Source: a virus
DNA length: 64,000 nt
Reading direction: 5' to 3' (one strand)
Virus record (IMG/VR): IMGVR_UViG_3300011230_000030
Coordinates: 4,126 to 68,125 of that record
The translations under genes and the position numbers were made by a program. Below the pieces are notes generated by a model, which saw only the letters and a program-made list of their open reading frames with translations, did no database searches and was not told the DNA's origin. Positions 12,143 through 59,688 of this stretch are shown here, piece by piece (position 1 is the first letter of the stretch; each line of letters begins with the position of its first letter).

Positions 12143-12316
12143 ATGCAGGGGAAGTGCCCGAAGTGCGATAAGGCCGTTGTCCGCATCAATACCGAAAAGC
12201 AGACCACAGCGGTGGGCGGAATCACAACCCACATTCTGGTGTTCAGCACCAGCTGCTGCCATGTGATTGTCAGCGTGGCGTTGGATCCGAAGGAGATCGT
12301 GAAGCGGATCGGTTGA
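12143..12316 (+). CDS. Small zinc-ribbon protein (moron)
   Basis: AAGGAG RBS; CPKC...CC.V; upstream CATAAT. Confidence 0.65.
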   Translation: MQGKCPKCDKAVVRINTEKQTTAVGGITTHILVFSTSCCHVIVSVALDPKEIVKRIG

Positions 12317-12359
12317 CAGTGACGTCACCGAATGGTTTGATTCTGCAACTGTCAAGAAT
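12313..12359 (+). promoter_or_regulatory. Late promoter (pR'-like)
   Basis: TTGACA-17 bp-TTTGAT; downstream AAGAAT resembling a sigma pause element; followed by terminator. Confidence 0.6.
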
Positions 12360-12366
12360 TGTCCCT

Positions 12367-12400
12367 GAAGCCCCGGCCCTGCGTCGGGGCTTCTGCGTTT
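12367..12400 (+). terminator. tR'-like terminator
   Basis: GAAGCCCCGG/TCGGGGCTTC hairpin followed by TGCGTTT. Confidence 0.6.
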
Positions 12401-12416
12401 CCGGGACTGCGCTTCC

Positions 12417-12495
12417 TGCGGGCGTAGGCCAGAGGTCCAGGCTGCCGGGCTCATAACCCGGAGATTCGCCGGTTCGAATCCGGCCCCCGCAACCA
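12417..12495 (+). tRNA. tRNA-Met(CAU), initiator-like, atypical
   Basis: Cloverleaf: CCGGG-CTCATAA-CCCGG anticodon arm, GCCGG-TTCGAAT-CCGGC T arm, encoded CCA; extra C in acceptor stem. Confidence 0.85.
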
Positions 12496-12578
12496 TCCAC
12501 GCCCGTCCACCCTCACCGGACCAATTCGCCGAGCCTGCCGGGCTGCGGTGACGGGCACCTATCGCCGGAGATCCACCC

Positions 12579-13076
12579 ATGTCACAGCTGCTGCTGCCAA
12601 TGACCCCAGCGCAGTGCCTGCAGCACGTGGTCGTGCCGGCGCTCGCCCTGTTGGGTGCCGCTCGCTACGACTCGCCCGAGGCTCGCGTGCTAATGCTGGC
12701 CATTGCCGGGCAGGAGTCAGGCCTGGCCCACCGCCGGCAGGTGAAGGGCCCAGCCCGTGGGCTGTGGCAGTTCGAAGAAGGCGGTGGCGTTCGGGGGGTG
12801 CTGAACCACCCGTCGACCCGCGTGGCTGCTGCCGCACTGTGCAAAGCCCAGGGTGTCAGCGCCAATCAGGCTTCGGTGTACTTGCAGCTTGAACTGGACG
12901 ACATCCTGGCTGCGGGCTTCGCCAGGCTGCTGCTCTTCACGCTACCGCAGCGCTTGCCCGAGCTGGGGAACGTGTCGATGGGGTGGAAGCAGTACCTGGA
13001 CGCCTGGCGACCTGGGAAGCCTCACATCGACCGCTGGCCGAAGTGCTACGCCGCGGCCATGCAGGCGGCAGGCTGA
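12579..13076 (+). CDS. Putative endolysin (lysozyme-like fold)
   Basis: AIAGQES...GPARGLWQFE motif; first gene of the lysis cassette. Confidence 0.75.
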   Translation: MSQLLLPMTPAQCLQHVVVPALALLGAARYDSPEARVLMLAIAGQESGLAHRRQVKGPARGLWQFEEGGGVRGVLNHPSTRVAAAALCKAQGVSANQASVYLQLELDDILAAGFARLLLFTLPQRLPELGNVSMGWKQYLDAWRPGKPHIDRWPKCYAAAMQAAG

Positions 13077-13396
13077 TGGCGGAGGACACTGCACCGTGGT
13101 GGCTGGCTGGCGGCGCGGTGGCGCTGTGGTTGGTCCGCGAGACCTGGGGCTCGATCCTGTCCCGGCGCAAGGAGCGCACCGAGACCGATGCCAACGTCGA
13201 CCTGCTCAATGGTCTGGTGGAGCGGGTCAAGTCGTTGGAGGCATCCCAGGTGGCCACCAGCAATCAGCTGGCCGACGAGATCCGGCTGCGCATGGCAGCG
13301 CAGGAGGAATCGCACCGCCTGCGCCTGCGCGTCATGTCCCTGGAAGACGCAATGCGCCGAGTTGGCGCGGTGATTCCCCCGGAGCCTACGCAATGA
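13076..13396 (+). CDS. Putative holin / TM-coiled-coil lysis protein
   Basis: N-terminal hydrophobic segment plus coiled coil, between endolysin and spanin. Confidence 0.55.
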   Translation: MAEDTAPWWLAGGAVALWLVRETWGSILSRRKERTETDANVDLLNGLVERVKSLEASQVATSNQLADEIRLRMAAQEESHRLRLRVMSLEDAMRRVGAVIPPEPTQ

Positions 13397-13860
13397 ACCG
13401 CATCGCCATCGCAGTCGCCGCCTTCACCCTGTGGTCCGCAGCCATGTTCGGTGCGGGGTGGGTCTGGCGCGGCGACCGGGCAGAGACCAGGGAAGCCGAC
13501 CAGCGCGCCGCCAGCGCCGAGGCAGTCGCCACCCAGGTCAACCAGACCCGTGCCACCGAGCACGCCCAGGCCGAGACACTGGCCGCCATTGGAGCGAAGC
13601 ATGAAGAAGACCGCACTGCGGCCGCGGCCGTCCCTGCTGCTGTTGTTGCTGGCGTGCGTGATGGCAGCCTCCAGCTGCGCGACGACCTCGCCACCTGCAA
13701 TACCGCTCGCCTGTCCCAAGCCATCGCCGGCACCATCGAACGTGACCAGGCAGCCCAACTACGAGCAGAGGTCGCGGGCGCTCTTGTTCAAATCGGGCGA
13801 GACGCCGATGACCACGTCCGCGCCTGCCAAGCCGTGATCCGGGCGGACAGGGAGCAGTAA
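13393..13860 (+). CDS. Rz-like i-spanin
   Basis: N-terminal TM, Ala-rich helical periplasmic part, C-terminal ACQ. Confidence 0.8.
   Translation: MNRIAIAVAAFTLWSAAMFGAGWVWRGDRAETREADQRAASAEAVATQVNQTRATEHAQAETLAAIGAKHEEDRTAAAAVPAAVVAGVRDGSLQLRDDLATCNTARLSQAIAGTIERDQAAQLRAEVAGALVQIGRDADDHVRACQAVIRADREQ
13601..13837 (+). CDS. Rz1-like o-spanin embedded in Rz
   Basis: GGAG RBS; MKK...LLLLLLAC...SSC lipoprotein-like signal; Pro-rich; +1 frame. Confidence 0.72.
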   Translation: MKKTALRPRPSLLLLLLACVMAASSCATTSPPAIPLACPKPSPAPSNVTRQPNYEQRSRALLFKSGETPMTTSAPAKP

Positions 13861-14315
13861 TGGCACGGCCCAGTAAGTACAGCCAGCAGCTTGCCGACGC
13901 GATCTGCGACCTGCTGGTGGATGGCAAGAGCCTGCGCACGATCTGTTCCACGGCGAAGATGCCGAGCCGTTCCACGGTCATCCGTTGGTTGGCTGAGAAC
14001 GAGGCATTTCGCAACCAGTACGCGCGTGCACGCGAGCTGCAGGCGGACACGCTGGCCGAAGAGATCCTCGACATCGCCGACAAGGCGGTGCTGGGCGAGC
14101 GGCTGAAGAAGGACGGCAAGGGCAAGGTGTTGGAGCGACAGACCGGCGACATGGTCGAGCGCTCCAAGCTGATGATCGATGCCCGGAAGTGGTACGCCGG
14201 CAAGCTTCAGCCCAAGAAGTACGGCGAGCGCGTCGCCTTGGACCACGGCGTACAGGACAACCTGGCCGACCAACTGAGGGCCGCCCGTGAGCGCGCAGCC
14301 GGCCGCGAGTCCTGA
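13860..14315 (+). CDS. Terminase small subunit
   Basis: RPSKY.....D.IC.....G.SLR.IC...MP...TV..WL; IDARKW...KL.PKKYG. Confidence 0.9.
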   Translation: MARPSKYSQQLADAICDLLVDGKSLRTICSTAKMPSRSTVIRWLAENEAFRNQYARARELQADTLAEEILDIADKAVLGERLKKDGKGKVLERQTGDMVERSKLMIDARKWYAGKLQPKKYGERVALDHGVQDNLADQLRAARERAAGRES

Positions 14316-15786
14316 GCAGCAGCTGGTCGAGGCGATCGGCTCGTTCCAGCACGACCCGCTGGGCTATGTGCTGTTCAACTTCCCTTGGGGCGTCAAGGGC
14401 GGCCCACTGGACGGCAAGAAGCTGCGCGCTTGGCAGCGCCGGCGGCTGGAGAAGATCGGTAACAGGCTGCAGGCCGGTGCGGCTGATGCTGGTGAGGTCA
14501 TCCGGCAGGCTGTCGGTTCGGGTCACGGCATCGGCAAGTCCGCGCTGGTGGCGATGCTGATCAAGTGGGCCTTCGACACGTTCGAAGACACGCGCGGCGT
14601 CGTCACAGCCAACACCGACATCCAGCTGCGCACGAAGACCTGGGCGGAACTGTCGAAGTGGCATGAGATCAGCCTCACCAAAGACTGGGCCACGCTGACC
14701 GCCACGGCGCTGATCAGCAACGCCCCAGGCCACGACAAGACCTGGCGCATCGACGCGGTGCCGTGGTCGCAGAACAACACCGAGGCGTTCGCCGGCCTGC
14801 ACAACGAGGGCCGGCGCATCCTGCTGGTGTTCGACGAGGCTTCGGCCATCGCCGACAAGGTGTGGGAAGTGGCCGAGGGTGCGCTGACCGACCAGGGCAC
14901 CGAGATCATCTGGGCCGCGTTCGGCAACACCACCCGCAACACCGGCCGGTTCCGCGAGTGCTTCCGCCGGTTCAAGGCCAGTTGGGACACCGAGCAGATC
15001 GACAGCCGCACCGTTGAGGGAGTGAACCTGGTCGAGGCCGAGCGCATGGTGCGCGACTACGGCGAGGACAGCGACGTGGTGAAGGTCCGTATCCGCGGCC
15101 TGTTCCCCTCGATGTCAGCCCGCCAGTTCATCGCCGAGGCGGATGTGGCTGCAGCCTACGGGCGACACCTGCGGCCGGAGCAGTACAGCTGGGCGCCGAA
15201 GATCCTCACGCTGGATCCGGCGTGGGAAGGCGACGACGAGCTGGTGATCGGCCTGCGTCAGGGCCTGGCCTATCGGCAGCTGCGCACGCTGGCCAAGAAC
15301 GACAACGACATGGCGGTGGCGGCGATCCTCGCCCAGCTGGAGGACGAGCATCAGGCCGACGCTGTGTTCGTCGATGGCGGGTTCGGCACAGGCATCGTGT
15401 CCGCAGGCCGAACCATGGGCCGCGACTGGCGCCTGGTGTGGTTCTCGGGCGAGTCGGGCGACCAAGGCTGCCTCAACAAGCGCGCCGAGATGTGGAAAGC
15501 CTGCCGCGACTGGCTGAAGGAAGGCGGCGCCATCCCTGAAGACCCGCAGCTGCGCGACGAGCTGCAAGCACCGGAAACCGTGCCGCGCCTCGACGGCAAG
15601 CTGCAGATGGAATCGAAGAAGGACATGAAGCGCCGCGGCCTGCCGAGCCCCAACCGGGCCGACGCCCTGGTGCTGTCGTTCGCATACCCCGTGATGCCCC
15701 GGCCGCGCTTCCCCGACGGGTCGCCGATGGAGCATCGCGACCACGCCGACCAGCAGGCCGGCGAGCCCTACAACCCGTTGTCCTGA
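14287..15786 (+). CDS. Terminase large subunit
   Basis: SGHGIGKS Walker A, VFDEAS Walker B, GN.TR, LDPA..GDD, SPNRADAL nuclease motifs. Confidence 0.95.
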   Translation: MSAQPAASPEQQLVEAIGSFQHDPLGYVLFNFPWGVKGGPLDGKKLRAWQRRRLEKIGNRLQAGAADAGEVIRQAVGSGHGIGKSALVAMLIKWAFDTFEDTRGVVTANTDIQLRTKTWAELSKWHEISLTKDWATLTATALISNAPGHDKTWRIDAVPWSQNNTEAFAGLHNEGRRILLVFDEASAIADKVWEVAEGALTDQGTEIIWAAFGNTTRNTGRFRECFRRFKASWDTEQIDSRTVEGVNLVEAERMVRDYGEDSDVVKVRIRGLFPSMSARQFIAEADVAAAYGRHLRPEQYSWAPKILTLDPAWEGDDELVIGLRQGLAYRQLRTLAKNDNDMAVAAILAQLEDEHQADAVFVDGGFGTGIVSAGRTMGRDWRLVWFSGESGDQGCLNKRAEMWKACRDWLKEGGAIPEDPQLRDELQAPETVPRLDGKLQMESKKDMKRRGLPSPNRADALVLSFAYPVMPRPRFPDGSPMEHRDHADQQAGEPYNPLS

Positions 15787-15796
15787 AGGAATCCCC

Positions 15797-16000
15797 ATGT
15801 GCAACTCCGCCCCCAAGGTGAAGCCGGTGGCCGCAGCGCCCGAAGTGGCGCCCGAGTCGATCGACGATGCCGCCGTGAACGAGCGCGACCGCGAGCGCCA
15901 GCGGCAGCGCCTGCGCTTCGGCGCCAGGTCGACCATCCTGGCCGGCGATACCAGCTCGGCGATGCCGACCGCGTCGGTCAAGACGGCGCTGGGTGCCTGA
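15797..16000 (+). CDS. Small virion-associated protein
   Basis: AAGGA RBS; begins MC; STIL...KTALG; between terL and portal. Confidence 0.7.
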   Translation: MCNSAPKVKPVAAAPEVAPESIDDAAVNERDRERQRQRLRFGARSTILAGDTSSAMPTASVKTALGA

Positions 16001-16004
16001 CGCC

Positions 16005-16268
16005 ATGTGCACCTCGCGCCAGATCATCGATCCGGGTGGACTGCTGTTCGGCGACAAGACCGGCAAGTACGCCGACCCGCTCGGCATCACCAAGACCGCC
16101 GTGGGTGATCCGACCGGCCGCGTGCGCCGCGCTCGCAAGGAAGCCGAGGACGAGCGCCGCACGTACGCCAGCAGCGGCGCGTCCTCTGTGGCGTATCGAT
16201 CGCTGGCGCCGACGACAACCGCGCTGGGTGGAACAGCTCCGCGCAACACCGTGCTGGGGGGAGGCTGA
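16005..16268 (+). CDS. Small virion-associated protein
   Basis: Begins MC; ends TVLGGG; coupled to portal. Confidence 0.6.
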   Translation: MCTSRQIIDPGGLLFGDKTGKYADPLGITKTAVGDPTGRVRRARKEAEDERRTYASSGASSVAYRSLAPTTTALGGTAPRNTVLGGG

Positions 16269-17980
16269 TGGACATGATGGAGCTGCGCGCGCACTGCCGG
16301 CGCCGCAAGAAGGCCATGAAGGACAGCCAGACGGACTGGAACACCGACTGGCGCCAAGTGTCGGAGTACGTGGACCCAACCCGCGGCCGCTTCTACGGCG
16401 AGACCGACACGAAGCCCAGGAAGCGCAACCGGGCCAAGGTGATCAACAGCACCGCCACCGAGGTCCTGCGCACGATGTCGGCCGGGATGATGTCCCACAT
16501 GACGCCGAAGGCGCAGCCGTGGTTCCTGGTCAAGACGCCGGACCCGGCGTTGTCTGAGCAGTTTGGCGTCCGGGTATGGCTGGACGACGTCGCGCAGCGC
16601 ATCCGGGACGCCTTGGCCAGCAGCAACTTCTACAAGGCCATGCCGGTCGTCTACACGGAAGACGGACTTTTCGGCACTGCGCCAATGCTGATCCTCGAAG
16701 ATCCGCGCGAGGTGGTCCGGTTCTACTCGCTCACCGCAGGCACCTACGCGGTGGGGCTGGACGACCAGCAGCGCGTCGACTCGCTGTGGCGCCGGTACAC
16801 GAAGACTGCCCGGCAGCTGGAGCAGCGCTACGGTGCAGACCGGCTGCCGAGAACCGTTCGGGACTGCCTGGCGAACAATGGCGACCGCGAGTTCATCGTG
16901 GAATCGCTGATCGAGCCGAATCCCAACGAGCGCCCCGGTATCGGGCCGCTGGGGCTGCAGGCGCCGCAGTTCCGACCCTACCGTGAGGTGGTCTGGATCG
17001 ATGGGGTGGGCACTGCCGATCACGGGATTCTGGACATCGGTGGGCATTACGAAGCGCCGTTCGTGGTGGCTCGCTGGAATCCGGTGGCTGAAGACGTGTA
17101 CTCCACCAGCCCGGCGGTCGACTGCTTGGGAGACATCAAGCAGCTGCAATATCTGGAAGGCGAAAAGCTGCGTCTGATGGAGCAACTCTCCGATCCCACG
17201 CTCGGAGGGCCGGAATCGCTGAAGCGGTCCGGAGGCGCGCGCCTGCGAAAGGGCGGCATGGTTTACCTGCCACAGGACTCGGTCAACGCCACCGTTGCGC
17301 CGGTCTACACCCCTGACGCCAGAGGGCTGCAGCAGATCCGCGAAGAGATCGCCACCATCGAGGCCCGCATCCAGCGGGCTTTCTTCTATCAGCTCTTCCT
17401 GATGCTCGAAGCGCTGGGCGACAAGACCGACCGCACGGCAACCGAGATCGCCACCCGCAAGGAAGAGAAGGCGGCCGTGCTGGCGCCCACGCTGGAGTCG
17501 ATCACGGACGAAGTTCTCGACCCGGTGATCGTTCGTGTGTTCCGCCTTCTGGAACGCGCCGGCCGCATCCCGGACCCACCGCAGGTGCTGGCGGACCTGC
17601 CCCTGAAGATCGAGTACACCAGCATCCTGGCGCAGGCGGCCAAGGCCGCAGCAGTCGGCTCCATCGAGCGCACGGTGCAGTTCGTTGCCGGCGTCGCCCA
17701 GGCAACCGGCGATCCCTCGGTGATGGACAAGCTGGACGCGGACCAGGTAGTCGACGAGTACACCACTGCGGTAGGTGGTCCGGCTTCGATCATCCGCAGC
17801 GACGATGCCGTGGCCAGCATTCGTGCCGATCGCGCCCAGCAGCAGCGTCAGCAGCAGCTCGCGGCGGCCGCGCAGCCGCTGAAGGATGCAACCCAAGCAC
17901 TGAAGACCGCCAGCGATACGGTGCCCGAGGAAGGCTCGGCGGCCCAGGCGCTGATTGACGCCATGCAGGGTGCCGCATGA
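16268..17980 (+). CDS. Portal (head-tail connector), podovirus type
   Basis: 570 aa; FGTA, RW......Y..SP....LGD.KQLQ, TATE...R.EEK...L.P motifs. Confidence 0.93.
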   Translation: MDMMELRAHCRRRKKAMKDSQTDWNTDWRQVSEYVDPTRGRFYGETDTKPRKRNRAKVINSTATEVLRTMSAGMMSHMTPKAQPWFLVKTPDPALSEQFGVRVWLDDVAQRIRDALASSNFYKAMPVVYTEDGLFGTAPMLILEDPREVVRFYSLTAGTYAVGLDDQQRVDSLWRRYTKTARQLEQRYGADRLPRTVRDCLANNGDREFIVESLIEPNPNERPGIGPLGLQAPQFRPYREVVWIDGVGTADHGILDIGGHYEAPFVVARWNPVAEDVYSTSPAVDCLGDIKQLQYLEGEKLRLMEQLSDPTLGGPESLKRSGGARLRKGGMVYLPQDSVNATVAPVYTPDARGLQQIREEIATIEARIQRAFFYQLFLMLEALGDKTDRTATEIATRKEEKAAVLAPTLESITDEVLDPVIVRVFRLLERAGRIPDPPQVLADLPLKIEYTSILAQAAKAAAVGSIERTVQFVAGVAQATGDPSVMDKLDADQVVDEYTTAVGGPASIIRSDDAVASIRADRAQQQRQQQLAAAAQPLKDATQALKTASDTVPEEGSAAQALIDAMQGAA

Positions 17981-18336
17981 GCAGGCCGGGGCGTAGCCAA
18001 GAGGACATCGACCAGGAGCGCCGCGAGCGCCAGCTGGCCACGCTGGAGCTTCGCCAACTGCGCGAGGACGTCCGTACCGTACTGGCGGAGCCTGTCGGCC
18101 GCCGTGTGGTCTGGGCGTTCCTGCAAGCAATGGGCGTGGACGCCAGCGCCTTCAACACCAACGCGATGGCCCAGTCCCGCGCCATCGGCCGCCAGGAGGC
18201 GGCCCTGTGGTGGCTGCTGGCAATCCGTGACAACTGCCCGGAGCGCGAAGCTCAAATGCGCGCCGAGGCCAACAGTGCACTGAAGCGGCTGCAGTCGCAG
18301 CTGCAGCAACCCGAGGAAAGTGAACATGTCGACTGA
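17977..18336 (+). CDS. Bbp19-like phage protein
   Basis: D...VL....GRRVVW; AF......A....GRQ; follows portal. Confidence 0.7.
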   Translation: MSRPGRSQEDIDQERRERQLATLELRQLREDVRTVLAEPVGRRVVWAFLQAMGVDASAFNTNAMAQSRAIGRQEAALWWLLAIRDNCPEREAQMRAEANSALKRLQSQLQQPEESEHVD

Positions 18337-19039: not shown

Positions 19040-19063
19040 GCCAACACAACAACCCATCCCACG

Positions 19064-20624: not shown

Positions 20625-20642
20625 TCGCACCACTGGCAACAC

Positions 20643-37928: not shown

Positions 37929-39134
37929 TCATCCGGCCCGCAGCTTCACCACGTTTCCATCGCGCAGGCCATCGAGGTAATCCGCCCACACCTGCATCAT
38001 CCGCACGCGCTCCTGCAGGTGCGATGTGCGGTTGTAGGCCCGACCGTTGGGATCCTTCACCGCGTGAGCAAGCTGGTGCTCGATGATGTCCGGGCGGAAG
38101 TGCAGGACCTCGTCCAGAATGGTGCGAGCCGTCGCGCGGAAGCCGTGGCCGGTCATCATCGTTCGGTCGTAACCCATGTTGCGAAGCGCTGCGGTAACGG
38201 CGTTCTCCGACATCGGGCGTTTGGGGTCGCGGGCCCCAGAGAACACCCACTTGTGCCGGCCGGTGATCGGCTTGATGTCCTCCAGGATCTGCAGCGCCTG
38301 TCTGGACAGCGGCACCAGGTGCGCAGCGCGCATCTTCATCTTGTTGGCGGGGATGGTCCACACGGCCGCGTCGAGGTCAAATTCCTCCCATTCCGCATGC
38401 CGCAGTTCTCCAGGACGCAGGAACACCAGCGGCGCCAGCCGCAGCGCCGAGCGGGTGATGGCAGAGCCGCTGTATGCCTCGATGGAGCGCAGCAGGCCTC
38501 CCAACTGCACGGGGTCGGTAATCGCCGCATGGTGGGCCTCCTTCGGTGGCGCGAGTGCTCCCTTCAGGTCGGCGACCGGGTTTCGCTCGGCGCGGCCAGT
38601 GGCCACGGCGTACCGCATGATCTGGCCGCAGTTCTGCATGATCCGGTGCGCGGATTCGATCGCGCCGCGGTCCTCAATGCGTCGGGCGACCCGGAGGAAG
38701 TCCGGCGCGGTGAGGTCGGCAACAGAGCGTGACCCGATCCAGGGGAAGACATCGTTCTTCATCCAGGCTTCGACCTTCTCCGCATAGCTGGGCACCCAGG
38801 GGCGCGTGGCCAGCCACTCATTGGCGATGGTCTCGAAGCTGTCCGATCCGAGGGCGGCGTGGGCGAGGGCGGCAGCCTTCTTCTGCGCGCCCGGGTCGAC
38901 GCCTCGGGCCAGCAGCCGGCGGGCTTCGTCGCGGGCCTCGCGGGCGCGCGCCAAGGAGACGTCCGGGTACAGCCCGATCGACAGCAGCTTTTCCTTGCCG
39001 GCGATGCGGTACTTCCAGCGCCAGCTGCGTGCACCGGTCGGGGTGAGGTAGAGGTACAGGCCGCCACCGTCGGTGATCTTCTGCGGCTTGTCGCTGGGCT
39101 TGGCGCGCCTGATGGCTGCGTCGGTCAGAGGCAT
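37929..39134 (-). CDS. int: P4-type tyrosine integrase of prophage 1
   Basis: MPLTD..IR.AKP...DGGGLYL, G.YP.VSLA.AR arm domain; RPGE, HGFR, QLAH, AYNR catalytic residues. Confidence 0.96.
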   Translation of the reverse strand: MPLTDAAIRRAKPSDKPQKITDGGGLYLYLTPTGARSWRWKYRIAGKEKLLSIGLYPDVSLARAREARDEARRLLARGVDPGAQKKAAALAHAALGSDSFETIANEWLATRPWVPSYAEKVEAWMKNDVFPWIGSRSVADLTAPDFLRVARRIEDRGAIESAHRIMQNCGQIMRYAVATGRAERNPVADLKGALAPPKEAHHAAITDPVQLGGLLRSIEAYSGSAITRSALRLAPLVFLRPGELRHAEWEEFDLDAAVWTIPANKMKMRAAHLVPLSRQALQILEDIKPITGRHKWVFSGARDPKRPMSENAVTAALRNMGYDRTMMTGHGFRATARTILDEVLHFRPDIIEHQLAHAVKDPNGRAYNRTSHLQERVRMMQVWADYLDGLRDGNVVKLRAG

Positions 39135-39231
39135 TGGGGGTATCGCTTCAGTGGGTGCGGTCGGATACCCCTTGATATACCCCCACCGTCTCATGGATTG
39201 AAACGGATTGCCCCGGTCTGCTGCGGACAAT

Positions 39232-39274
39232 AAAAAAGCCCGGAAACCCTTGTGATGCGGGGGTTTCCGGGCTT
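39232..39274 (-). terminator. Terminator downstream of ssrA
   Basis: Minus strand AAGCCCGGAAACCC...GGGTTTCCGGGCTT-TTTT. Confidence 0.8.
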
Positions 39275-39299
39275 CTCCGGTCCTTGACGAACCGTTCGT

Positions 39300-39653
39300 T
39301 GGTGGAGGTGGGCGGAATTGAACCGCCGTCCGAAGGCACTCCATCCCCAGCACTACATGCTTAGCTCACCGTTGGATCTCGTCCCCGAACAGCACGGTGC
39401 GCAAAGCGCATCCGGGAACCAGCCTGTTGTGTTCTAGTGCCGGACTGACAGGCAGCCGCCCAGCGCGATTCCATGATAGTGACTCTACACCGCGAGCATG
39501 GACACAAGCGGTTTCGAGGCTTAGGCCTTAAGCGGCCAGAGCGTAGTTGTCGTCGTTGGCAACTAGAGTTTTGCAGCTGGATTTACGAGGAAAGCTACCC
39601 CCTCGGCATGCGCCAGGCGACTTCACAACCCCCGTCGAAACCAATGCACCCCC
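39300..39653 (-). ncRNA. ssrA: tmRNA
   Basis: 5' GGGGGTG pairs with 3' CACCTCC-ACCA (G3-U70); T arm GGCGG-TTCAATT-CCGCC; tag ORF ANDDNYALAA* at 39528-39560. Confidence 0.98.
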
Positions 39654-50810: not shown

Positions 50811-51194
50811 CTACCCCGCAGATCGCTGCTTAACCGCATGGCTGCCTGTGCCTCTGCCCATGGCCGAGACCAAGCGATCCACGGTTTCCCGATCCCCGGC
50901 TTCCAGGTCCATGTAGTTTCCGAGCAGCATTGACACCGACTCCAAGACAGCAGGATCTGAAGGGAAATTCGGCAGCAACAGTGCCCAAGGGGCTACGGAA
51001 TAGGCTGCTGCTATGGCGTCGACAGTCCGGACAGTCGGATTCTTGAAATGCCCGCGGCCATACGTCATGAGGTCGCCGATGGCGCGTTGAGATACTCCAG
51101 CCCGCTGAGCCAGCGCCGCCTGGGAGTCGCCGCGCGCCTGCATGAAGCGGCGGACGTTGTCTGCAATCGTTACCACTGGGTCTACTTTCGCCAT
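50811..51194 (-). CDS. XRE-family repressor (no S24 peptidase)
   Basis: SQAALAQRAGVSQRAI HTH, NPT..T.DAIA.A..V.PW.LL; divergent from cro-like gene. Confidence 0.8.
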   Translation of the reverse strand: MAKVDPVVTIADNVRRFMQARGDSQAALAQRAGVSQRAIGDLMTYGRGHFKNPTVRTVDAIAAAYSVAPWALLLPNFPSDPAVLESVSMLLGNYMDLEAGDRETVDRLVSAMGRGTGSHAVKQRSAG

Positions 51195-51267
51195 TTGTTC
51201 AGCGTAAGCACCGGCTTGCGCATTTCGGTGCTTGCCGGATAAGCATTGTAGTGCTACAAAGTCGCGC
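51195..51267. promoter_or_regulatory. OR region of prophage 2
   Basis: AGCATTGTAGTGCT (51242-51255) and CGCATTTCGGTGCT (51219-51232) match OL; TTGCCG-17 bp-TACAAA on plus, TACGCT on minus. Confidence 0.7.
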
Positions 51268-51588
51268 ATGGACGCCGATACCCTCTTGCATCAAACCGTG
51301 GTGCGCCTGCGTGCGCATGAAGGGAAGTACGCCGAGATCGCCCGGCAGAACCCGGACATCGGCTATTCGTGGCTGACGAAGCTGGCACACGGGCAGATCA
51401 CGAACCCGACGATCGCCAGCCTGCAGCAGCTGATCGAGGCGCTGAACGCCTTCGAAGGCCTGGAGCGGGGCGGCCTGGCCGAAGTGGTGGCGCAGGCCGA
51501 TCCGGTTATGGACCCAGTTATGGAACAGCGCGCCGAACCGAGCGGCGACGTGGACGCCGGCCGCATCGTGCCGCTGGAGACAGCCTGA
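51268..51588 (+). CDS. Cro-like HTH protein
   Basis: YAEIAR....IGYSWLTKLAHGQITNPTI. Confidence 0.75.
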   Translation: MDADTLLHQTVVRLRAHEGKYAEIARQNPDIGYSWLTKLAHGQITNPTIASLQQLIEALNAFEGLERGGLAEVVAQADPVMDPVMEQRAEPSGDVDAGRIVPLETA

Positions 51589-52578: not shown

Positions 52579-52884
52579 TCAGACCCCCGGATGAACCTGC
52601 TCGAAGAAGGCGCCATACCGCTGGAGCATCCGGGTCAGGGAATCTCGTCTCTGAACCGCCCAGTCTGGCGTACCCGCTTTCTCTACCTGTCCGACAAGGT
52701 CTTGGACCCGAGCCTTCAGAGCGGCTGGGTTTGGATGAGTAGCGATGAGCGCATGAATCCATAGGTCCATGGCTGCCTTCTCACCATGGAGTACGTGCAT
52801 GTCCTGAGCGACCGCCTCGAACTGTCCGCGGACGCGGTGCTGGAAGCCGTCAAAGTCAATTGCAAGTTGCTGCAAATCTGCCAT
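52579..52884 (-). CDS. Antisense moron, small helical protein (paralogue B)
   Basis: TGG-CAGAAT extended -10 and GGAG RBS; EKAAMDLWIHALIATHPN. Confidence 0.7.
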   Translation of the reverse strand: MADLQQLAIDFDGFQHRVRGQFEAVAQDMHVLHGEKAAMDLWIHALIATHPNPAALKARVQDLVGQVEKAGTPDWAVQRRDSLTRMLQRYGAFFEQVHPGV

Positions 52885-52966
52885 GGGTGTCTCCGGTTGG
52901 TGTTTGGGTTGGGTTGCACCCCCATTCTGCCAGCCGGAGGACCCGCCCTTACTACCGAGGACTCCC

Positions 52967-53494
52967 ATGCCCTGGATCGATGAAACCTGGCTGCAGGACG
53001 CGCTGGCGGCCCTGAAGGCCACGTGCGATGTCGACGCACATACCCGCAACGCGATGATCCAGTTCCTGCTGGACAACGGCTTCTGGGATCAGGAGAAGCT
53101 GAAGGATTGGACCAGCGCTGTTGCCAAGTTCAACAGCTGCCTCAACCCGAACAAGGCCGAGTTCTTCAAGATCGGCGAGCTGTGGGCGCTGATGCGCCGC
53201 TTCGGCCGCCACCAGCTCTTCCTGGCCATGGCCGCGGATCTCGGCTATGAGGTCCGCCCGATCCCCACCGAGCATCGCAGGCAGGAGCTGCTGCAGCAGC
53301 TGGTCGACGTCCAGGCGCAGTGTGCAGCCGCCGTGGAGCGCGCCGCCAGCCAGCTGGAACGCCTCAACACGCCCGCGCCGGAGCCGCGCCCAGGTGCCAT
53401 CCATGGACAGGGTCGCGCGCAGTTCAGCACCAGCCCGAGCGATTGGAGCGCGCCCATCAGGGGCAACGCCGTCCAAAGCGTGGGCTGCCCGTAA
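52967..53494 (+). CDS. CII-like phage regulatory protein
   Basis: GAGG RBS; CLNPNK.E.FK; between cro and replication genes. Confidence 0.6.
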   Translation: MPWIDETWLQDALAALKATCDVDAHTRNAMIQFLLDNGFWDQEKLKDWTSAVAKFNSCLNPNKAEFFKIGELWALMRRFGRHQLFLAMAADLGYEVRPIPTEHRRQELLQQLVDVQAQCAAAVERAASQLERLNTPAPEPRPGAIHGQGRAQFSTSPSDWSAPIRGNAVQSVGCP

Positions 53495-53511
53495 CGGGGT
53501 AGGCCTGCGTA

Positions 53512-54558: not shown

Positions 54559-55105
54559 GATCTACGGTTACCGCTGGACCAGCGCCTACGGCGAGGATCC
54601 CAGCGGCGGCGCTGCCGCGACCTGGGCGAAGGGGCTTGCCGGGCTCACCGGGGAGCAGCTGGCAGCAGGCCTGGGCTCGAGCATCGCCTCGGCTGACCCG
54701 TGGCCGCCGACCCTGCCGGAATTCCGGCTGCGCTGCCTGGGCGTGCCGAGCTTCGCCGCTGTCCGCAACGACACCAGCCGCCAGGACGGCTTCACGCGCC
54801 TGGTGTGGCAATACCTGGACGGCCATCGCTACCGCACATCGAGTGCCGACAAGAGCGATCGCCTGTTGCGGGAGGCCTACGACCAGGCGCGCGAATACGT
54901 GATGCGCGGCGGGCAGCTGCCGGACGAGCCGGTGGCGGTCCTGGGCCAGGCCGCCGTGGCCACGCCGGTACCGGCCAGCCCTGAAGCACTCCGCCGTGCT
55001 GAGCGCGAGATCGCGGAGATCTTCGGCAAGGGATCTGCAGAGCCAGGCAACGACGACCATCCGCCGGCGACGGGCAAGATGGCAGCGGCAGGGCTGGATC
55101 GATGA
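54404..55105 (+). CDS. Replication protein P-like (helicase loader)
   Basis: GAGGGG RBS; LW.RM..IYG.RW...YG, W...L.GL, WPP.LPEF...C; overlaps initiator gene. Confidence 0.7.
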   Translation: MPKIQALLPNESDVEQKQTSSVTPLQRQTPPPAQQAPLTARATRTLWVRMAEIYGYRWTSAYGEDPSGGAAATWAKGLAGLTGEQLAAGLGSSIASADPWPPTLPEFRLRCLGVPSFAAVRNDTSRQDGFTRLVWQYLDGHRYRTSSADKSDRLLREAYDQAREYVMRGGQLPDEPVAVLGQAAVATPVPASPEALRRAEREIAEIFGKGSAEPGNDDHPPATGKMAAAGLDR

Positions 55106-55641
55106 TCGACCAGGAGCAACTGCGCAGCTACCACCGGTCGCAGGTGCTGTATGCCCTGCAAGAGGCCAGCGAACCGATGACGGCCTCCGAAGTGCACGAG
55201 GCCATGACGACCCTGGCGCTGGCCATGGGCCATCCCAGGGAATGCGCAGCGATCACCCCAGCCGCTGTGGCCGGGATACTGCGTGGCATGCTCGGCGAGC
55301 AACTGGTCACCCAAGGCGACGACAGGACAAATCGCCGTTATGGGCGTGCCGAGCCGACCTGGTCGATCGCTGCTGGCCAGGCGCGGGTCCTGCAGCCGTC
55401 GGCCCCGGGCAAGAGCACGGCCGCATTGGCTGCCGCGTCACCGATGGCGGGGCAGGGCACCCAGCTCCGCCAGATCACCATTGATCAGCGCCTGGCATTC
55501 CTGCAGGCCGAGTGCGCCGCGCTGCTGGCGGACGTGACAAAGGAACATGCGGCGTTCGAGCTCCGGGTTCGAAACCAGCTGGAGGCGTTCGAAGCGCGCG
55601 CTGCACGATTGCTCGGTCTACCGCAGGACGGTGGCCAATGA
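55102..55641 (+). CDS. Hypothetical protein (possible winged helix)
   Basis: ATGA coupling; VL.AL.....PMTA.EV. Confidence 0.6.
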   Translation: MIDQEQLRSYHRSQVLYALQEASEPMTASEVHEAMTTLALAMGHPRECAAITPAAVAGILRGMLGEQLVTQGDDRTNRRYGRAEPTWSIAAGQARVLQPSAPGKSTAALAAASPMAGQGTQLRQITIDQRLAFLQAECAALLADVTKEHAAFELRVRNQLEAFEARAARLLGLPQDGGQ

Positions 55642-56069
55642 GCAACCGTGGGCTCCGCTACAACCGGATTGAGGACATGCCGCAAGGTATGCAGCAGCTG
55701 GTGCACAAGGCTGGCCAGCTGGCGCCTACGCGTGGGCCAGCCGAGCACCAGGTGCATGCACCGGTGGAGAAGCGGCCGAAGTACGGCAATGTGATCACCA
55801 CGGTGGACGGGATCCGCTTCGACTCCAAGCGCGAGGCCCGCTACTACGAGCAGCTGAAACTGCGCCAGCAGGCCGGCGAGGTGCACTTCTGGCTGCGCCA
55901 GGTACCGATCCACCTGCCCGGCGGCACCAGGTACGTCCTGGACTTCCTGGTGTTCCTGCGCGACGGACATGTCGACTTCGTGGACGTGAAGGGCCGGGAG
56001 ACGAAGGAATTCCGCATCAAGAAGCGTGAAGTGGAGCACCACTACCCGATCAAGGTGTTGCTGGCATGA
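55638..56069 (+). CDS. DUF1064-like endonuclease/resolvase
   Basis: KYGN..T.VDGIRFDSK.EA..Y, Y..DF, DVKG..T..F.IK. Confidence 0.85.
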   Translation: MSNRGLRYNRIEDMPQGMQQLVHKAGQLAPTRGPAEHQVHAPVEKRPKYGNVITTVDGIRFDSKREARYYEQLKLRQQAGEVHFWLRQVPIHLPGGTRYVLDFLVFLRDGHVDFVDVKGRETKEFRIKKREVEHHYPIKVLLA

Positions 56070-56404
56070 GTGGCTGGAGATCCAGTGGCCGCGTAGGCGG
56101 TGCCGGCGTCGACCTCAGCGCGGTGGCCACCACCGACCTGCTGCGGGAGATCGAACGGCGCTGCTCGGCGGGCGGCCCCCCCCCGGTCGACCGCCCTGCG
56201 AAGGACCGGCCATTCGCGACCAAGGCGCTCTGGGCCGAGGACAAGGTCAACCAGGCACGTGCCCGGCTTGCCGAGCTCCGCGCGCTGCCGGTACCGACCT
56301 GCGAGGCCGAGCGCGCCGCCCGCTCCGCCCAGGACTCGCAACTGGTCGCCGACGTCGTCAAGTACGACGGCATGGCCAAGGCATTCAAGAGGAAGGGCCA
56401 ATGA
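56066..56404 (+). CDS. Hypothetical phage protein
   Basis: ATGA coupling on both sides. Confidence 0.55.
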   Translation: MSGWRSSGRVGGAGVDLSAVATTDLLREIERRCSAGGPPPVDRPAKDRPFATKALWAEDKVNQARARLAELRALPVPTCEAERAARSAQDSQLVADVVKYDGMAKAFKRKGQ

Positions 56405-57228
56405 AACCTGCGGAGCTCAAGGCGAGGTACCCGACCGAAGCTGCCCTCTGCACGTGCCTGATCGACTGCCTGACCGCAGCTGGGGGCTGGGAAATCTACC
56501 CCGAGACGGCCGGCTTCGACATCCTCGCTGTGTGGAAGGCGACCGGGCACCAGCTCGGCATCGAGGCGAAGCTGCAGCTCAACGCCAAGGTGGCCGACCA
56601 GATCCTGCCGGCGCACTGGAGCAACGCCGACCAGCGGGGCCCGGACTTCAGGGCTGTGCTGGTTCCCTGTACGACGGCAGCAAACTACGGCATTGCACGC
56701 ATGCTCGATGCGCTGGGTGTGCAGGTCCTGGTGCCGGACAGCTGCATCGGCCGGTGGAAGATGGAGCCCGGGCAGCAGATCCAGCGCGAGGTGCATCGGC
56801 ATGGCCTGCACCAGGCCGCCCCATGGGACCGCGCATCCGGCGATCTCCGCGAGTGGGGGCCCACGGCATGGTTCGACTGGAACCCCACCAAGCGCTGTGA
56901 GCTGCCTGAATTTGTGCCGAAAGTGGCCGCAGGTGTACCGGCGCCGCTGCAGTTGACGCCCTGGAAGGTCGGCGCGCTGAAGGTGCTGGCAGATCTCGAG
57001 CTCGACGGCTTCACAACGGCGAAGGGCGTCCGGGCCCATGGCGTGGATCCGCGCCGCTTCTGTGCGACCGACGGATGGCTGAAGCAACTGGGCGGCGGGA
57101 AATGGGCCCGCGGAACCCTCCCTGCTTTCGAGGACCAGCACCCCGAGGCCTATGCCCAGGTGCTGGCCCAGGCGCGCGCCGCGCGCGCTGCAGCGGATTC
57201 CAAGAAGACCCTGGAAAAGACGCCATGA
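56401..57228 (+). CDS. PD-(D/E)xK-like phage protein
   Basis: E..L, YPET.G.DIL.V, GIEAK motif. Confidence 0.65.
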   Translation: MKPAELKARYPTEAALCTCLIDCLTAAGGWEIYPETAGFDILAVWKATGHQLGIEAKLQLNAKVADQILPAHWSNADQRGPDFRAVLVPCTTAANYGIARMLDALGVQVLVPDSCIGRWKMEPGQQIQREVHRHGLHQAAPWDRASGDLREWGPTAWFDWNPTKRCELPEFVPKVAAGVPAPLQLTPWKVGALKVLADLELDGFTTAKGVRAHGVDPRRFCATDGWLKQLGGGKWARGTLPAFEDQHPEAYAQVLAQARAARAAADSKKTLEKTP

Positions 57229-58142
57229 ACGAAGCTGCAGTCGGTACCACCGCGCTCGCTGCCGCGCGCGAGCTCGAAGTGGCGTTCCTCAAGGGGAAGA
57301 AGATCCCGTCCTGCGCCAACTGCAACGGCAAGGCGAGGGTGTGCTGGCCTGGTCGCGAGTCGCAGCTCGTGCAGCTCCAATGCCGGCACTGTGGGCCGCG
57401 CGGAGCCATCTTCGACAGCAGCGCACCAGTCCAGTGCGGCCGCTGTGGTGCCGCCCCGACCGGCCTGTTCCCGCGCGGCGCACAGATTCAGTGCTGCAGC
57501 TGCGGTGCATCCTCAGCCGTGTTCGTTGGCCAGGATCCTGCCGGTGCTCTGGCGGCGGCGCTGGATGCCTGGTGCCGCCGTGCACCGGTTCTTCCGCCGG
57601 CGGCGGACGACAGCGCAGGGCAGCGGCGCCGCGGCGCAGCCCCGGATGGATTCGATGACGAGGGCAAGGGCGATGTCCTGGAGCTGCTGTCGCGCCTGCT
57701 GGTTGGCGGGAGCTACCGCATGCCAGTGGAGGGGCGCAGCACCTTGGCGCCGCTTGGCAGCAGCGACATCGCCGGCGCGGTCGGCTACATGCGGAACCAG
57801 CTGGAGAAGCACACCGCCCTGGCTGTAGCGACGCGGATGGGCCCCGCTGCGATCGCAAGGCTCTCCCTCGCTGCCTACCGCCAGGTAGCCAAGGACGTGC
57901 GCGCAATGCGGCCGCGGCCGCTGGACCTCGGCAAGCCGGCGGATCGGTGGCGCCTTCGCCTGGTGATCTACGACGCAGCCCACGAACTGGTGTGGCCGGA
58001 GCGGCGGCAGCCGTTCGCCGGCCTGGCCAAGTCCGCCAAGATGCGCAAGGGCAACTACATCAAGGCCCACAAGTGCGCTAGCGCTGTCCTGCAGGAAGCG
58101 CTGCACGGCGGAAGGCGTGGGTTCCGGCACGCGATGTGGTGA
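57225..58142 (+). CDS. Zinc-ribbon (Lar-like) N-terminus fused to putative late regulator (Q-like) C-terminus
   Basis: Four CxxC pairs then A..AW.RR; C-terminal DIAGA.G helical domain; last early-right gene. Confidence 0.55.
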   Translation: MNEAAVGTTALAAARELEVAFLKGKKIPSCANCNGKARVCWPGRESQLVQLQCRHCGPRGAIFDSSAPVQCGRCGAAPTGLFPRGAQIQCCSCGASSAVFVGQDPAGALAAALDAWCRRAPVLPPAADDSAGQRRRGAAPDGFDDEGKGDVLELLSRLLVGGSYRMPVEGRSTLAPLGSSDIAGAVGYMRNQLEKHTALAVATRMGPAAIARLSLAAYRQVAKDVRAMRPRPLDLGKPADRWRLRLVIYDAAHELVWPERRQPFAGLAKSAKMRKGNYIKAHKCASAVLQEALHGGRRGFRHAMW

Positions 58143-58156
58143 ACAAGACCGGTTGA

Positions 58157-58624
58157 TCAGTGTTTGAGGGACAGATGAGGTGCGACGATCTCGGGAAGTA
58201 CCAATGCCGCTCGAGATGCCGGGCCCATGGCATCTATGTGTTCTTCGGCGAGCTTCGACTCGTCGGATCCCGCGGTTCGGCTCCAAGCCGCATCCTTCGC
58301 TTCGGCCAGTATTTGAAAGGGGTTGCCCACCTCCTTCCTTAGCCTTTCTGCCGTCTTCTCTCCAAACAGCCATCGCGCCTCGGCCAGCAGGCGACGCATC
58401 TGGACAACAGCATCGCTATTGCCCTCCACGATTCGCTGCAAGGACTGACCAAGGTCGACGTACAGCTTGTAGCGCCTATCGAACAGATCCGCCTTCAGCT
58501 TATTTCTTGCCGTCAGCCATTGACGCAGCGCGATGATTCCCACCGCAGCAGCGACGAGTATCTGCCCGATCGCAGTGAAGAGTTTGATCTGAAGGTCGGT
58601 CATACCCAGTACGGTCTCAACCAT
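58157..58624 (-). CDS. Antisense moron: N-terminal transmembrane protein
   Basis: GATAAT and GGAGG upstream; ILVAAAVGIIALRQW..AR.KLK.DLFDRRY..Y. Confidence 0.75.
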   Translation of the reverse strand: MVETVLGMTDLQIKLFTAIGQILVAAAVGIIALRQWLTARNKLKADLFDRRYKLYVDLGQSLQRIVEGNSDAVVQMRRLLAEARWLFGEKTAERLRKEVGNPFQILAEAKDAAWSRTAGSDESKLAEEHIDAMGPASRAALVLPEIVAPHLSLKH

Positions 58625-58724
58625 TGCGACATCCTCCCTGTATTGGCCGCGATTATCACATTTGTTAAGGTTTGTTAGGGGCTGATGGTCAGTCCCATGG
58701 CCGTGCCTACAGTGGGGTAGACCG

Positions 58725-59033
58725 TTGAGCGAGAAGGACAGGTGGTACGACTTTGGTGAGGCCCTGGCCATCACGGCCGGCCTGATGACGGCTTCCGGTG
58801 CCATGTTCGCGGCACCGTCTCGATTGTTCCCGATTCCGGGGATCCAGCACGTGGTGGCAGTTGCCGTTGCATTTCTCGCACTGCGGATCTGTATCGGCGC
58901 AGGCTGGCGCCTTGGCGGCACGTTCAACCATCCACGCACGACAGCAGCCGTCGCGATCGGTACGTCGGTGATCTACACGACGATGATCGGCAGCCTCGTC
59001 GTGGCGCTGCTGGAGCGTGGCCACGGTGCGTAA
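58725..59033 (+). CDS. Small three-TM membrane protein
   Basis: GGGG RBS with TTG start; three hydrophobic segments. Confidence 0.55.
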   Translation: MSEKDRWYDFGEALAITAGLMTASGAMFAAPSRLFPIPGIQHVVAVAVAFLALRICIGAGWRLGGTFNHPRTTAAVAIGTSVIYTTMIGSLVVALLERGHGA

Positions 59034-59060
59034 AACGTTCACCTAGCTGACCTCACTTGT

Positions 59061-59130
59061 TTCCTCATGAGGAAGAAATCTTCCTCATGAGGAACCGCAG
59101 TTGCCTCGGGAACCGAAAGTAGGTTTGAAT
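59061..59130 (+). promoter_or_regulatory. Late promoter preceded by two identical palindromes
   Basis: TTCCTCATGAGGAA at 59061-59074 and 59081-59094; TTGCCT-18 bp-TTGAAT. Confidence 0.6.
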
Positions 59131-59166
59131 CCCTACAGTGGGCGTTCTTATGGGCGCCTCAATTCA

Positions 59167-59225
59167 AAGGCCGTTGATTGACCAGGACGTGGGAGTCCGC
59201 TGGTCGATCAGCGGCCTTCTTGTTT
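59167..59225 (+). terminator. Long-stem late terminator immediately before the tRNA
   Basis: 19-bp stem AAGGCCGTTGATTGACCAG / CTGGTCGATCAGCGGCCTT followed by CTTGTTT. Confidence 0.65.
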
Positions 59226-59301
59226 GCGGGGTAGAGCAGTCCGGCAGCTCGCGTGGCTCATAACCACGAGGTCGGTGGTTCGAATCCACCTCCCGCTACC
59301 A
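59225..59301 (+). tRNA. tRNA-Met(CAU), initiator-like
   Basis: TGCGGGG-TA-GAGC..GCTC-G-CGTGG-CTCATAA-CCACG-AGGTC-GGTGG-TTCGAAT-CCACC-TCCCGCT-A-CCA; U1xU72 mismatch, A11-U24. Confidence 0.93.
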
Positions 59302-59304
59302 AAC

Positions 59305-59411
59305 GGCCGGTAGTCATGGCCACCACTCAAGCCAGCACATAGGCCGTCGTGAGACGCGCCGCTGGTGTCCGCGCGACCTTGCAACCGCGGTAGTGGTGGG
59401 CCATGCCGGCC
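59305..59411 (+). ncRNA. Candidate structured RNA element (three-way junction)
   Basis: Outer stems GGCCGG/CCGGCC, CATGGCC/GGCCATG, ACCACT/AGTGGT enclosing two hairpins, one with a GUGA tetraloop. Confidence 0.5.
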
Positions 59412-59433
59412 TCCTTTCATTGGGGGAACCGCG

Positions 59434-59688
59434 GTGAGCATCAAAGAGCAGATCACAACGGACCTGGCGGTCGCAGGTTCGAAGATCGGAGCGGCCGTCA
59501 GCGTCACCGCTGCAACCTACTCGCCGGGCTACACCCTCAGTGACTGGGCCCTGATCGGCACGATTATCTTCACCGTCGTCCAGACGCTCACCGTGCTGAT
59601 GAAAAACTGGGGTGACTGGTCGGCCTGGTGGACAGCGCGCGTAGGCAACGCCAGGCGCTTCTGGGCGTGGATCCGCCGCCGTGGCTGA
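59434..59688 (+). CDS. Putative holin
   Basis: GTG start; TLSDWALIGTIIFTV TM; basic C-terminus; precedes lysozyme. Confidence 0.7.
   Translation: MSIKEQITTDLAVAGSKIGAAVSVTAATYSPGYTLSDWALIGTIIFTVVQTLTVLMKNWGDWSAWWTARVGNARRFWAWIRRRG

Follow-up and report, generated by a model that had tools for sequence, protein, structure and literature searches.

Initiator-like tRNA(CAU) genes behind late terminators in two unrelated prophages of one virus record

A stretch of 64 kilobases (kb) out of a 68-kb virus record (IMG/VR record IMGVR_UViG_3300011230_000030; G+C 65.7%), called the window here and numbered from its first nucleotide, holds two prophage-like gene sets that flank a transfer-messenger RNA (tmRNA) gene. 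Each set carries one tRNA gene with the anticodon CAU, placed between a terminator hairpin and the first lysis gene. The locus raises the question of what kind of tRNA this is and why two unrelated prophages should carry it at the same point of the late operon. The first-pass annotation, made from the letters of the window, had proposed a shared and undescribed late-leader design with a toxin-resistant or decoy initiator tRNA. The analysis places both genes among initiator paralogues. The two tRNA cassettes are further cases of a known phage cargo in a known position, of which tRNA1 is structurally unusual, and not a new mechanism.

Two tRNA genes in two unrelated prophages

Exactly two tRNAs were found in the window using ARAGORN. 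Both have the anticodon CAU, lie on the plus strand and encode their CCA end, and in the Rfam tRNA model (gathering score 29) they reach 50.9 bits (tRNA1) and 57.9 bits (tRNA2). At gathering scores, Rfam gave nothing across the whole window besides tRNA and tmRNA. The RNA genes are as follows.

12417..12495, plus strand: tRNA1, initiator-like tRNA(CAU), 79 nucleotides (nt) (ARAGORN, Rfam, arm-by-arm alignment)
59225..59301, plus strand: tRNA2, initiator-like tRNA(CAU), 77 nt (ARAGORN, Rfam, arm-by-arm alignment)
39300..39653, minus strand: tmRNA (ARAGORN, Rfam)

The claim that the prophages are unrelated was borne out. Positions 1-39299 were compared with 42201-64000 using blastn, with no match at E ≤ 1e-3, and tblastx gave compositional noise. 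The 43 open reading frames (ORFs) called in one prophage had no blastp match at E ≤ 1e-3 to the 42 called in the other. The repressor of prophage 1 (4992-5717) combines a helix-turn-helix (HTH) domain with an S24 peptidase, and this prophage also encodes RecT, NinB, a phrog_1770 resolvase, and terminase genes. The repressor of prophage 2 (50811-51269) is HTH only, and RdgC, a phrog_190 resolvase, a holin, and a phrog_7 endolysin are encoded with it. The lysins of the two prophages differ.

Identity of the tRNAs

Host tRNAs for comparison were taken from Stenotrophomonas genomes, which were reached through a protein match and then searched. One of these genomes (G003) has four CAU tRNA genes, namely two identical tandem initiators, one elongator Met, and one Ile2-like gene. 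Global identity of tRNA2 was 87% to the host initiator, 66% to the elongator Met, and 58% to the Ile2-like tRNA; for tRNA1, the values were 77-80%, 62%, and 67%. Elongator Met or Ile2 identity was ruled out by this comparison with the host CAU tRNAs (58-67% against 77-87% for the initiator).

Common to both tRNAs are G2:C71, C3:G70, a purine11:pyrimidine24 pair, G26, the anticodon loop CUCAUAA, G30:C40, G31:C39, and A73 followed by CCA. A purine11:pyrimidine24 pair marks initiator tRNAs; it is A11:U24 in tRNA2 and G11:C24 in tRNA1, whereas the host elongators have C11:G24. The initiator hallmarks read in the first pass were thus upheld for both genes, with the host initiator as the nearest cellular relative.

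Two details of the first-pass annotation fared less well. It had listed a weak or mismatched 1:72 among the features of both tRNAs, and this is no peculiarity of the phages. The host Stenotrophomonas initiator itself has U1 and U72 (U1xU72), so the U1xU72 of tRNA2 is the native state in the genus; tRNA1 has a weak Watson-Crick pair, U1:A72, beside a bulged C. It had also described anticodon stems that differ from the canonical initiator. This stands for tRNA2, which keeps two of the three G:C pairs at 29:41, 30:40, and 31:39 (U29:A41, with G30:C40 kept), and is marginal for tRNA1, which keeps all three and departs from the host in the anticodon stem only at 27:43.

The host initiator (two tandem genes, for example, L089:1501-1577) has its D arm in common with tRNA2, which differs from it at C27:G43, G28:C42, U29:A41, in the T stem (compensated), at G57 in the T loop, and at G7:U66. 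tRNA1 departs from it in the 1:72 pair (U1:A72), in a different D arm, in a variable loop of 6 nt, and in one additional C within the 5' strand of the acceptor stem. That C was present in 10/10 tRNA1 sequence variants, and compensatory changes among these variants were found at 49:65 (G:C to C:G), 50:64, and 13:22; the odd acceptor stem of tRNA1 has therefore been retained within a fold that works. An origin by chance or as a pseudogene was ruled out for the window copies by the compensatory cloverleaf changes together with wide recurrence. The window tRNAs have the CUCAUAA anticodon loop of the host, as do 15 of the 16 other Stenotrophomonas phage rows, the exception being the decaying L177 copy.

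According to PMC5389676, the main determinants for the formylase are the 1:72 mismatch with 2:71 and 3:70, and the middle pair G30:C40 suffices to sustain Escherichia coli. The same source gives natural initiators of the types au/GC/GC and GC/GC/gu, and for the natural au/GC/GC type in E. coli, it gives an initiation defect and a slight defect in the transition from 30S to 70S. Like the initiators short of one flanking G:C pair that are listed there (au/GC/GC, GC/GC/gu, cg/GC/cg), tRNA2 (ua/GC/GC) and the tRNA of a diverged phage cassette, L049 (GC/GC/ug), keep G30:C40. The phage variants are unlike these initiators in having pyrimidine:purine at the changed pair and in being accessory beside a canonical host copy. 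By analogy, tRNA2 is plausibly a working, perhaps weaker, initiator. For tRNA1, a working initiator is plausible too, less certainly so at the formylation step.

Leaders and spacers of the late operons

The following features were read around the two tRNA genes.

12313..12341, plus strand: putative late promoter of prophage 1, TTGACA (12313-12318), 17-nt spacer, TTTGAT (read by eye)
12342..12361, plus strand: near-invariant initial transcribed motif, 20 nt (leader alignment)
12367..12400, plus strand: terminator-like hairpin T1, then UGCGUUU (fold)
12501..12556, plus strand: hairpin hp2, between tRNA1 and the lysin gene (alignment)
12579..13076, plus strand: lysozyme-fold protein, 165 amino acids (aa), first late gene of prophage 1 (phrog_3108, function unknown; AF2, VIA)
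59061..59094, plus strand: paired 14-bp palindrome TTCCTCATGAGGAA, two copies, upstream of the -35 hexamer (sequence)
59101..59130, plus strand: putative late promoter of prophage 2, TTGCCT (59101-59106), 18-nt spacer, TTGAAT (by eye; conserved among relatives)
59140..59224, plus strand: small hairpin (59140-59159), then long terminator hairpin (59167-59218) with a U-rich tail (fold, terminator scan)
59302..59433, plus strand: 132-nt spacer with a predicted three-way junction, then a ribosome-binding site (fold)
59434..59688, plus strand: holin, GTG start (phrog_920 holin, E 1.4e-7; Pfam Phage_holin_2_2 below cut-off)
59681..60223, plus strand: endolysin of prophage 2 (phrog_7 endolysin, E 4.5e-34)

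In each prophage, the single CAU tRNA lies directly behind a terminator hairpin, as had been proposed. At locus 1, T1 is a 10-bp hairpin (12367-12393) with a z score of -2.1, and 9/200 shuffles were equally good; the core of its stem is invariant, and variation in the apical part preserves the pairing. T1 was absent from the listing of the terminator scan, which has a stricter T-run rule. The same scan did list terminator-like sites at the prophage 2 locus. There, the 85-nt fold reached -50.3 kcal/mol (z score -7.5; 0/200 shuffles equally good), and two stem pairs were changed on both sides in L077 and L176 (alignment, by eye). From the tail of T1 to tRNA1, the gap is 16 nt, and the tail CUUGUU of the prophage 2 terminator abuts base 1 of tRNA2 (0 nt). 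Because these gaps leave no room for a promoter, transcription of the tRNAs must pass the terminator. The earlier placement of both tRNAs directly after the terminator and ahead of the lysis genes holds, and only read-through can transcribe them there.

Conservation across 22 distinct tRNA1 regions begins exactly at the -35 hexamer of prophage 1. The motif at 12342-12361 has ≤3 changes in 29 distinct leader variants, tRNA-less leaders included, and is a possible pause or regulator-loading site. At prophage 2, the palindromes TTCCTCATGAGGAA were kept in 25 distinct regions. In the diverged cassette L049 (2780-2815), the palindrome reads TTCCGCATGCGGAA, and the change is symmetric. Judged from their sequence, the palindromes are a probable site for a dimeric DNA-binding regulator, and the form in L049 fits an altered specificity.

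The spacers behind the tRNAs, described in the first pass as base-paired stretches of 80-130 nt, have the expected lengths (83 nt at locus 1 and 132 nt at locus 2), and their pairing stood less well. hp2 has an invariant GC stem, and an alignment of 17 variants gave 12 pairs with 1 covarying (C:G 9, U:A 7, U:G 1). Folding of hp2 and spacer 1 in the window was no better than shuffles (z score -0.4). Spacer 2 has a minimum free energy of -63.7 kcal/mol, modestly better than shuffles (z score -1.9); its consensus has 43 pairs, of which 2 were changed on both sides, only in L176, among sequences that are nearly identical. A three-way junction in spacer 2 is plausible as a fold prediction.

For prophage 1, the idea of a spacer structure linked to the tRNA was not supported. 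A T-run follows hp2 in L018, L022, L024, and L027, and hp2 lies before the tRNA in L022 and L027. A second terminator, or a stem that protects or stabilizes the RNA, is the better reading of this hairpin, in either case independent of the tRNA. In L022 (3860-4050), L031, and L024, about 170 nt are conserved between the first terminator and hp2, with the tRNA absent or placed later. The leaders of L022, L026, L031, and L049 were searched against Rfam, with nothing relevant at E ≤ 1.

Recurrence and mosaicism

A survey of relatives showed that the layout recurs. In direct pattern scans, 36 viral contigs carried a tRNA1-type gene and 31 a tRNA2-type gene. Of 147 Stenotrophomonas species genomes, 4 had a full-length tRNA1 and 7 had tRNA2 (one cut by a contig end). 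Through a 177-aa protein encoded upstream of the prophage 1 leader, 50 viral loci were reached, of which 21 carry tRNA1, 2 the L022 type, 1 the L049 type, 1 a tRNA-Tyr, and 25 none, and some of these 25 lie on cut contigs. An initiator-like CAU tRNA is therefore carried by 24 of the 50, in three lineages. The L022-type tRNA has 75 nt, UxU at 1:72, and three G:C pairs, and the L049 type has UxU at 1:72 and U31:G39. Six species genomes reached through the same protein gave 2 with tRNA1, 1 with tRNA-Tyr, 1 with the L049 type, and 2 with none. Through the endolysin of prophage 2, 32 loci were reached, and 31 of them carry tRNA2 at the same distance.

The 22 distinct tRNA1 regions are near-identical from the -35 hexamer through hp2, and both flanks outside are unrelated; five different first ORFs were found behind the cassette (by eye). 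Conservation of the tRNA2 cassette begins sharply about 60 nt before the palindromes, behind many different upstream genes. At nine tRNA1 loci without the 177-aa protein, three other leaders were found, in each of which a GC-rich hairpin with a T-run immediately precedes the tRNA; TTGACA is present in two of them. In all, initiator-like tRNAs stand behind at least five different leaders. Where the leader carries no tRNA (L023, L024, L028, L031, L032, L033, L039, and L044), the distance from motif to hairpin is about 263 nt. On this comparison, the leader is modular and its tRNA cargo optional; where a tRNA is carried, it is almost always an initiator paralogue.

A tRNA-Tyr stands before hp2 in L026, and a tRNA-Tyr is in the same slot in L085. 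The pentamer CCTAC lies near both flanks of the tRNA-Tyr of L026 (4015-4125), which hints at an insertion event.

Two Stenotrophomonas species genomes hold decaying tRNA2 copies (L177:1501-1577 and L175:1501-1577, minus strand). The L177 copy has U33A, G28A, and G5A, and the L175 copy has G43U. These changes suggest decay in old prophages, and decaying copies fit a role in the lytic cycle better than a benefit to the lysogen or host.

Comparison with known systems

The layout had been put forward as undescribed, and this was not sustained. The public record of Pseudomonas phage D3 (NC_002484) shows the same order, with NinB, NinG, an uncharacterized protein, TTGACA, a terminator with a T-run, a CAU tRNA directly after it, and lysis genes. 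The tRNA-Met of D3 (53398-53473) is also initiator-like (C1xU72, A11:U24, three G:C pairs, A73), and the record annotates it as "tRNA-Met" only. D3 differs in its host, Pseudomonas aeruginosa, and in having tRNA-Gly, tRNA-Asn, and tRNA-Thr genes and two small ORFs before the holins. Its upstream protein (orf84) showed no similarity to the 177-aa protein by BLASTP. The anticodon loop of the D3 tRNA-Met (L105:2976-3051) is CCCAUAA, with C33 and not the near-universal U33.

tRNA genes after Q are well known in Shiga toxin (Stx) phages, where the 933W type has ileZ-argN-argO downstream of Q and pR'. The 933W-type cluster is alike in that the tRNA genes lie in the late leader between the antiterminator and the lysis genes. 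It differs in carrying elongators for rare codons (Ile2, Arg), whereas a single initiator paralogue is carried here, so that position alone is common to both. The late leader of phage lambda has the order pR', 6S RNA, tR', with antitermination by Q. The leaders described here are alike in promoter, short leader, intrinsic terminator, and lysis genes, and the initial motif is compatible with a regulator-loading pause. Unlike in lambda, no Q-family protein was identified here, and the palindromes of prophage 2 upstream of the -35 hexamer suggest an activator-type regulator. At both loci, in the other leader types, and in D3, an intrinsic terminator separates the late promoter from the genes that open the late operon.

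Two further phage groups carry comparable genes. Stenotrophomonas phage vB_Sm_QDWS359 has an annotated "tRNA-fMet", but after the large terminase gene. In PMC12429752, single tRNA-Met or tRNA-fMet (CAU) genes are listed for phiLM21-like prophages of Sinorhizobium meliloti at the annotation level, without an assigned function. No functional study of a phage-encoded initiator tRNA was found in the literature searched.

Lysis genes, candidate regulator, and neighboring genes

The first gene behind each leader is a lysis gene, as had been proposed, with the holin and endolysin in prophage 2 and the lysozyme-fold protein in prophage 1. The AF2 model of this 165-aa protein has a predicted local distance difference test (pLDDT) score of 95. 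VIA gave Z 11.4 to the muramidase 8b2e (root-mean-square deviation [rmsd] 2.8, 119 aligned), 10.1 to phiKZ gp144, and 9.4 to MltE. Foldseek alone was weak (best E 0.18), no Pfam or NCBIfam match was found, and phmmer against the PDB gave only a chance-level row. Glu46 was invariant in 30 homologues, and a few homologues carry the UniRef names lysozyme or SLT. Judging mainly from the models, the protein is the probable endolysin of prophage 1.

Two genes precede the prophage 1 leader.

11580..12113, plus strand: 177-aa protein, candidate late transcription regulator of prophage 1 (phrog_35346, function unknown)
12143..12316, plus strand: Cys-rich ORF, 57 aa, with its stop codon overlapping the -35 hexamer (ORF list)

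The 177-aa protein had no Pfam match even at E 10 and no NCBIfam or PHROG function. In the ESM Atlas, its neighbor cluster carries DUF1133 and Phage_antitermQ (score 0.95). Its AF2 model is poor overall (pLDDT 60), with residues 106-177 confident. In a wide VIA search, this C-terminal part aligned best to sigma-factor region 4, which made up 17 of the top 18 rows, and the other was the sigma complex 6dxo; these 18 rows have middling Z values of 7.5 to 5.5, with 8jzt_A as the best (rmsd 1.4 over 57 residues). The protein is a reasonable candidate for the late regulator, offered as a lead. In L049 (3001-3297) and L088 (3001-3297), a homologue of only the C-terminal half that resembles sigma region 4 lies downstream of the tRNA in a cassette like that of prophage 2. 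Family searches with the 57-aa Cys-rich ORF were blank, and a homologue lies in the same place in L022.

An integrase-sized ORF (37929-39353, minus strand) meets the tmRNA gene at its 3' end, beside the tail-fiber end of prophage 1. The gene order at 37929-39653 is unusual for a prophage, and this stretch may belong to a separate element. In the viral contig L082, a tmRNA gene (258-611) lies only about 1.9 kb upstream of a tRNA2 cassette (2545-2621), and that prophage seems to lack its early region.

Interpretation

We consider a late, antitermination-dependent supply of initiator tRNA to be the most likely reading, and somewhat better than even. We infer its timing, processing, charging, formylation, and benefit as follows. 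Late operons would start with a sigma-70-type promoter and one or more intrinsic terminators, in a lambdoid antitermination layout. The tRNA would become abundant only upon late read-through, cotranscribed with the lysis and virion genes. It would be excised by RNase P and 3' trimming, the CCA being already encoded. Charging by methionyl-tRNA synthetase would use the CAU anticodon and A73, and the formylase would act through G2:C71, C3:G70, and the unpaired or weak 1:72. With G30:C40 kept, the phage tRNA would work in initiation, and the outcome would be a larger initiator pool during late protein synthesis. The hairpin behind the tRNA would be a further terminator or, after excision of the tRNA, a 5' protective stem of the lysis mRNA. 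The modularity is shown by the relatives: the stretch of promoter, terminator, tRNA, and hairpin behaves as a mosaic unit exchanged by recombination among phages that are otherwise unrelated.

Several results weigh against a late supply of this kind. The late promoters proposed in the first pass stood as readable hexamers, with the conservation edge of prophage 1 at -35, but the consensus promoter scan called 0 sites at either locus, and we regard both promoters as putative, from the reading by eye and conservation. Among the sequencing runs on record as RNA, none was found to contain the locus. No Pfam, PHROG-function, or NCBIfam match to a Q-family antiterminator was found at prophage 1, and no candidate regulator emerged for prophage 2. 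A homologue of the 177-aa protein is absent at the nine tRNA1 loci mentioned above, all with at least 2 kb of upstream DNA, so this protein is not obligatory for the tRNA1 cassette. The same leader is found in many relatives that have no tRNA, so the tRNA is dispensable for the leader itself. As for function, U1:A72 and the bulged acceptor stem of tRNA1 might impair formylation or permit elongation. tRNA2 is without one of the three G:C pairs, and by analogy with the E. coli au/GC/GC type, which is initiation-defective, it may be impaired too.

A second explanation is anti-defense, in which the initiator variants would resist or soak up toxins that target tRNA-fMet (VapC-type nucleases or AtaT-type acetyltransferases) and so spare late translation in abortive infection. 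We hold it to be unlikely. In its favor, most phage lineages depart from the host initiator at four positions: the T loop is UUCGAAU against UUCAAAU in the host in all but one variant, 27:43 is C:G against U:A in the host in tRNA1, tRNA2, the L022 type, and D3, 29:41 is U:A in tRNA2, and tRNA1 has U1:A72 and a bulge in the acceptor stem, a region read by the formylase. AtaT also reads the acceptor-stem region of the initiator. However, the window tRNAs and the 15 of 16 rows noted above have the anticodon loop of the host, and A38-C39, which we take to be the VapC cut site, is host-identical here. tRNA1 keeps the three-G:C stem, and the changes are not common to all lineages. A Pfam search of 20 early-region proteins of both prophages brought up repressors, RecT, RdgC, and a Trans_reg_C protein; neither a PIN nor a GNAT toxin was among these 20, other genes and the host genomes being unscreened. 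The eLife paper PMC10264068 holds a hypothesis in favor of anti-defense, that phage tRNAs evade anticodon nucleases, and an observation against it, that Shigella phages generally avoid encoding tRNA-fMet.

A third explanation takes the tRNA mainly as a cis element, either an RNA-processing signal (cuts by RNase P or RNase E, stability of the lysis mRNA) or a recombination or attachment site. It is very unlikely in our judgment. It would suit the mosaic breakpoints at the tRNA flanks, the tRNA1-hp2 unit found behind four different leaders, the tRNA-Tyr in the same slot in L026 and L085, and the tRNA after hp2 in L022 and L027. Processing alone would not need an initiator, yet 4/5 of the tRNA lineages with these leaders are initiator-like, and conservation extends to the identity elements, the anticodon, and CCA. 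Beside the window tRNAs, neither an integrase nor a partial tRNA repeat was noticed, with no systematic search made.

Codon supply, by an elongator Met or an Ile2 tRNA (lysidine) reading AUA as with ileZ of the Stx phages, would agree with the ARAGORN label tRNA-Met for both genes and is highly improbable given the identities above and an acceptor stem, 11:24 pair, anticodon stem, and G26 that follow the initiator and not the two elongators.

Significance

The reasons why phages carry tRNAs are debated, and initiators fit neither codon supply nor, so far, the anti-nuclease idea. A bolder proposal, quite unlikely in our estimate, is that the host initiator has been taken up time and again by lambdoid phages of Stenotrophomonas and Pseudomonas and remodeled into a private late initiator that is immune to host or rival defenses directed at tRNA-fMet or that biases initiation to phage late mRNAs. 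The remodeling would include the bulged acceptor stem with U1:A72, the ua/GC/GC anticodon stem, and the changed T loop. If this were true, the late leader would double as a counter-defense or translation-takeover module. Work on discrimination by formylase, EF-Tu, and initiation factors gains an unusual natural variant in the conserved acceptor bulge of tRNA1. At least four initiator-derived lineages, together with D3, stand in late leaders of unrelated temperate phages, which argues for selection on an extra or altered initiator in late expression.

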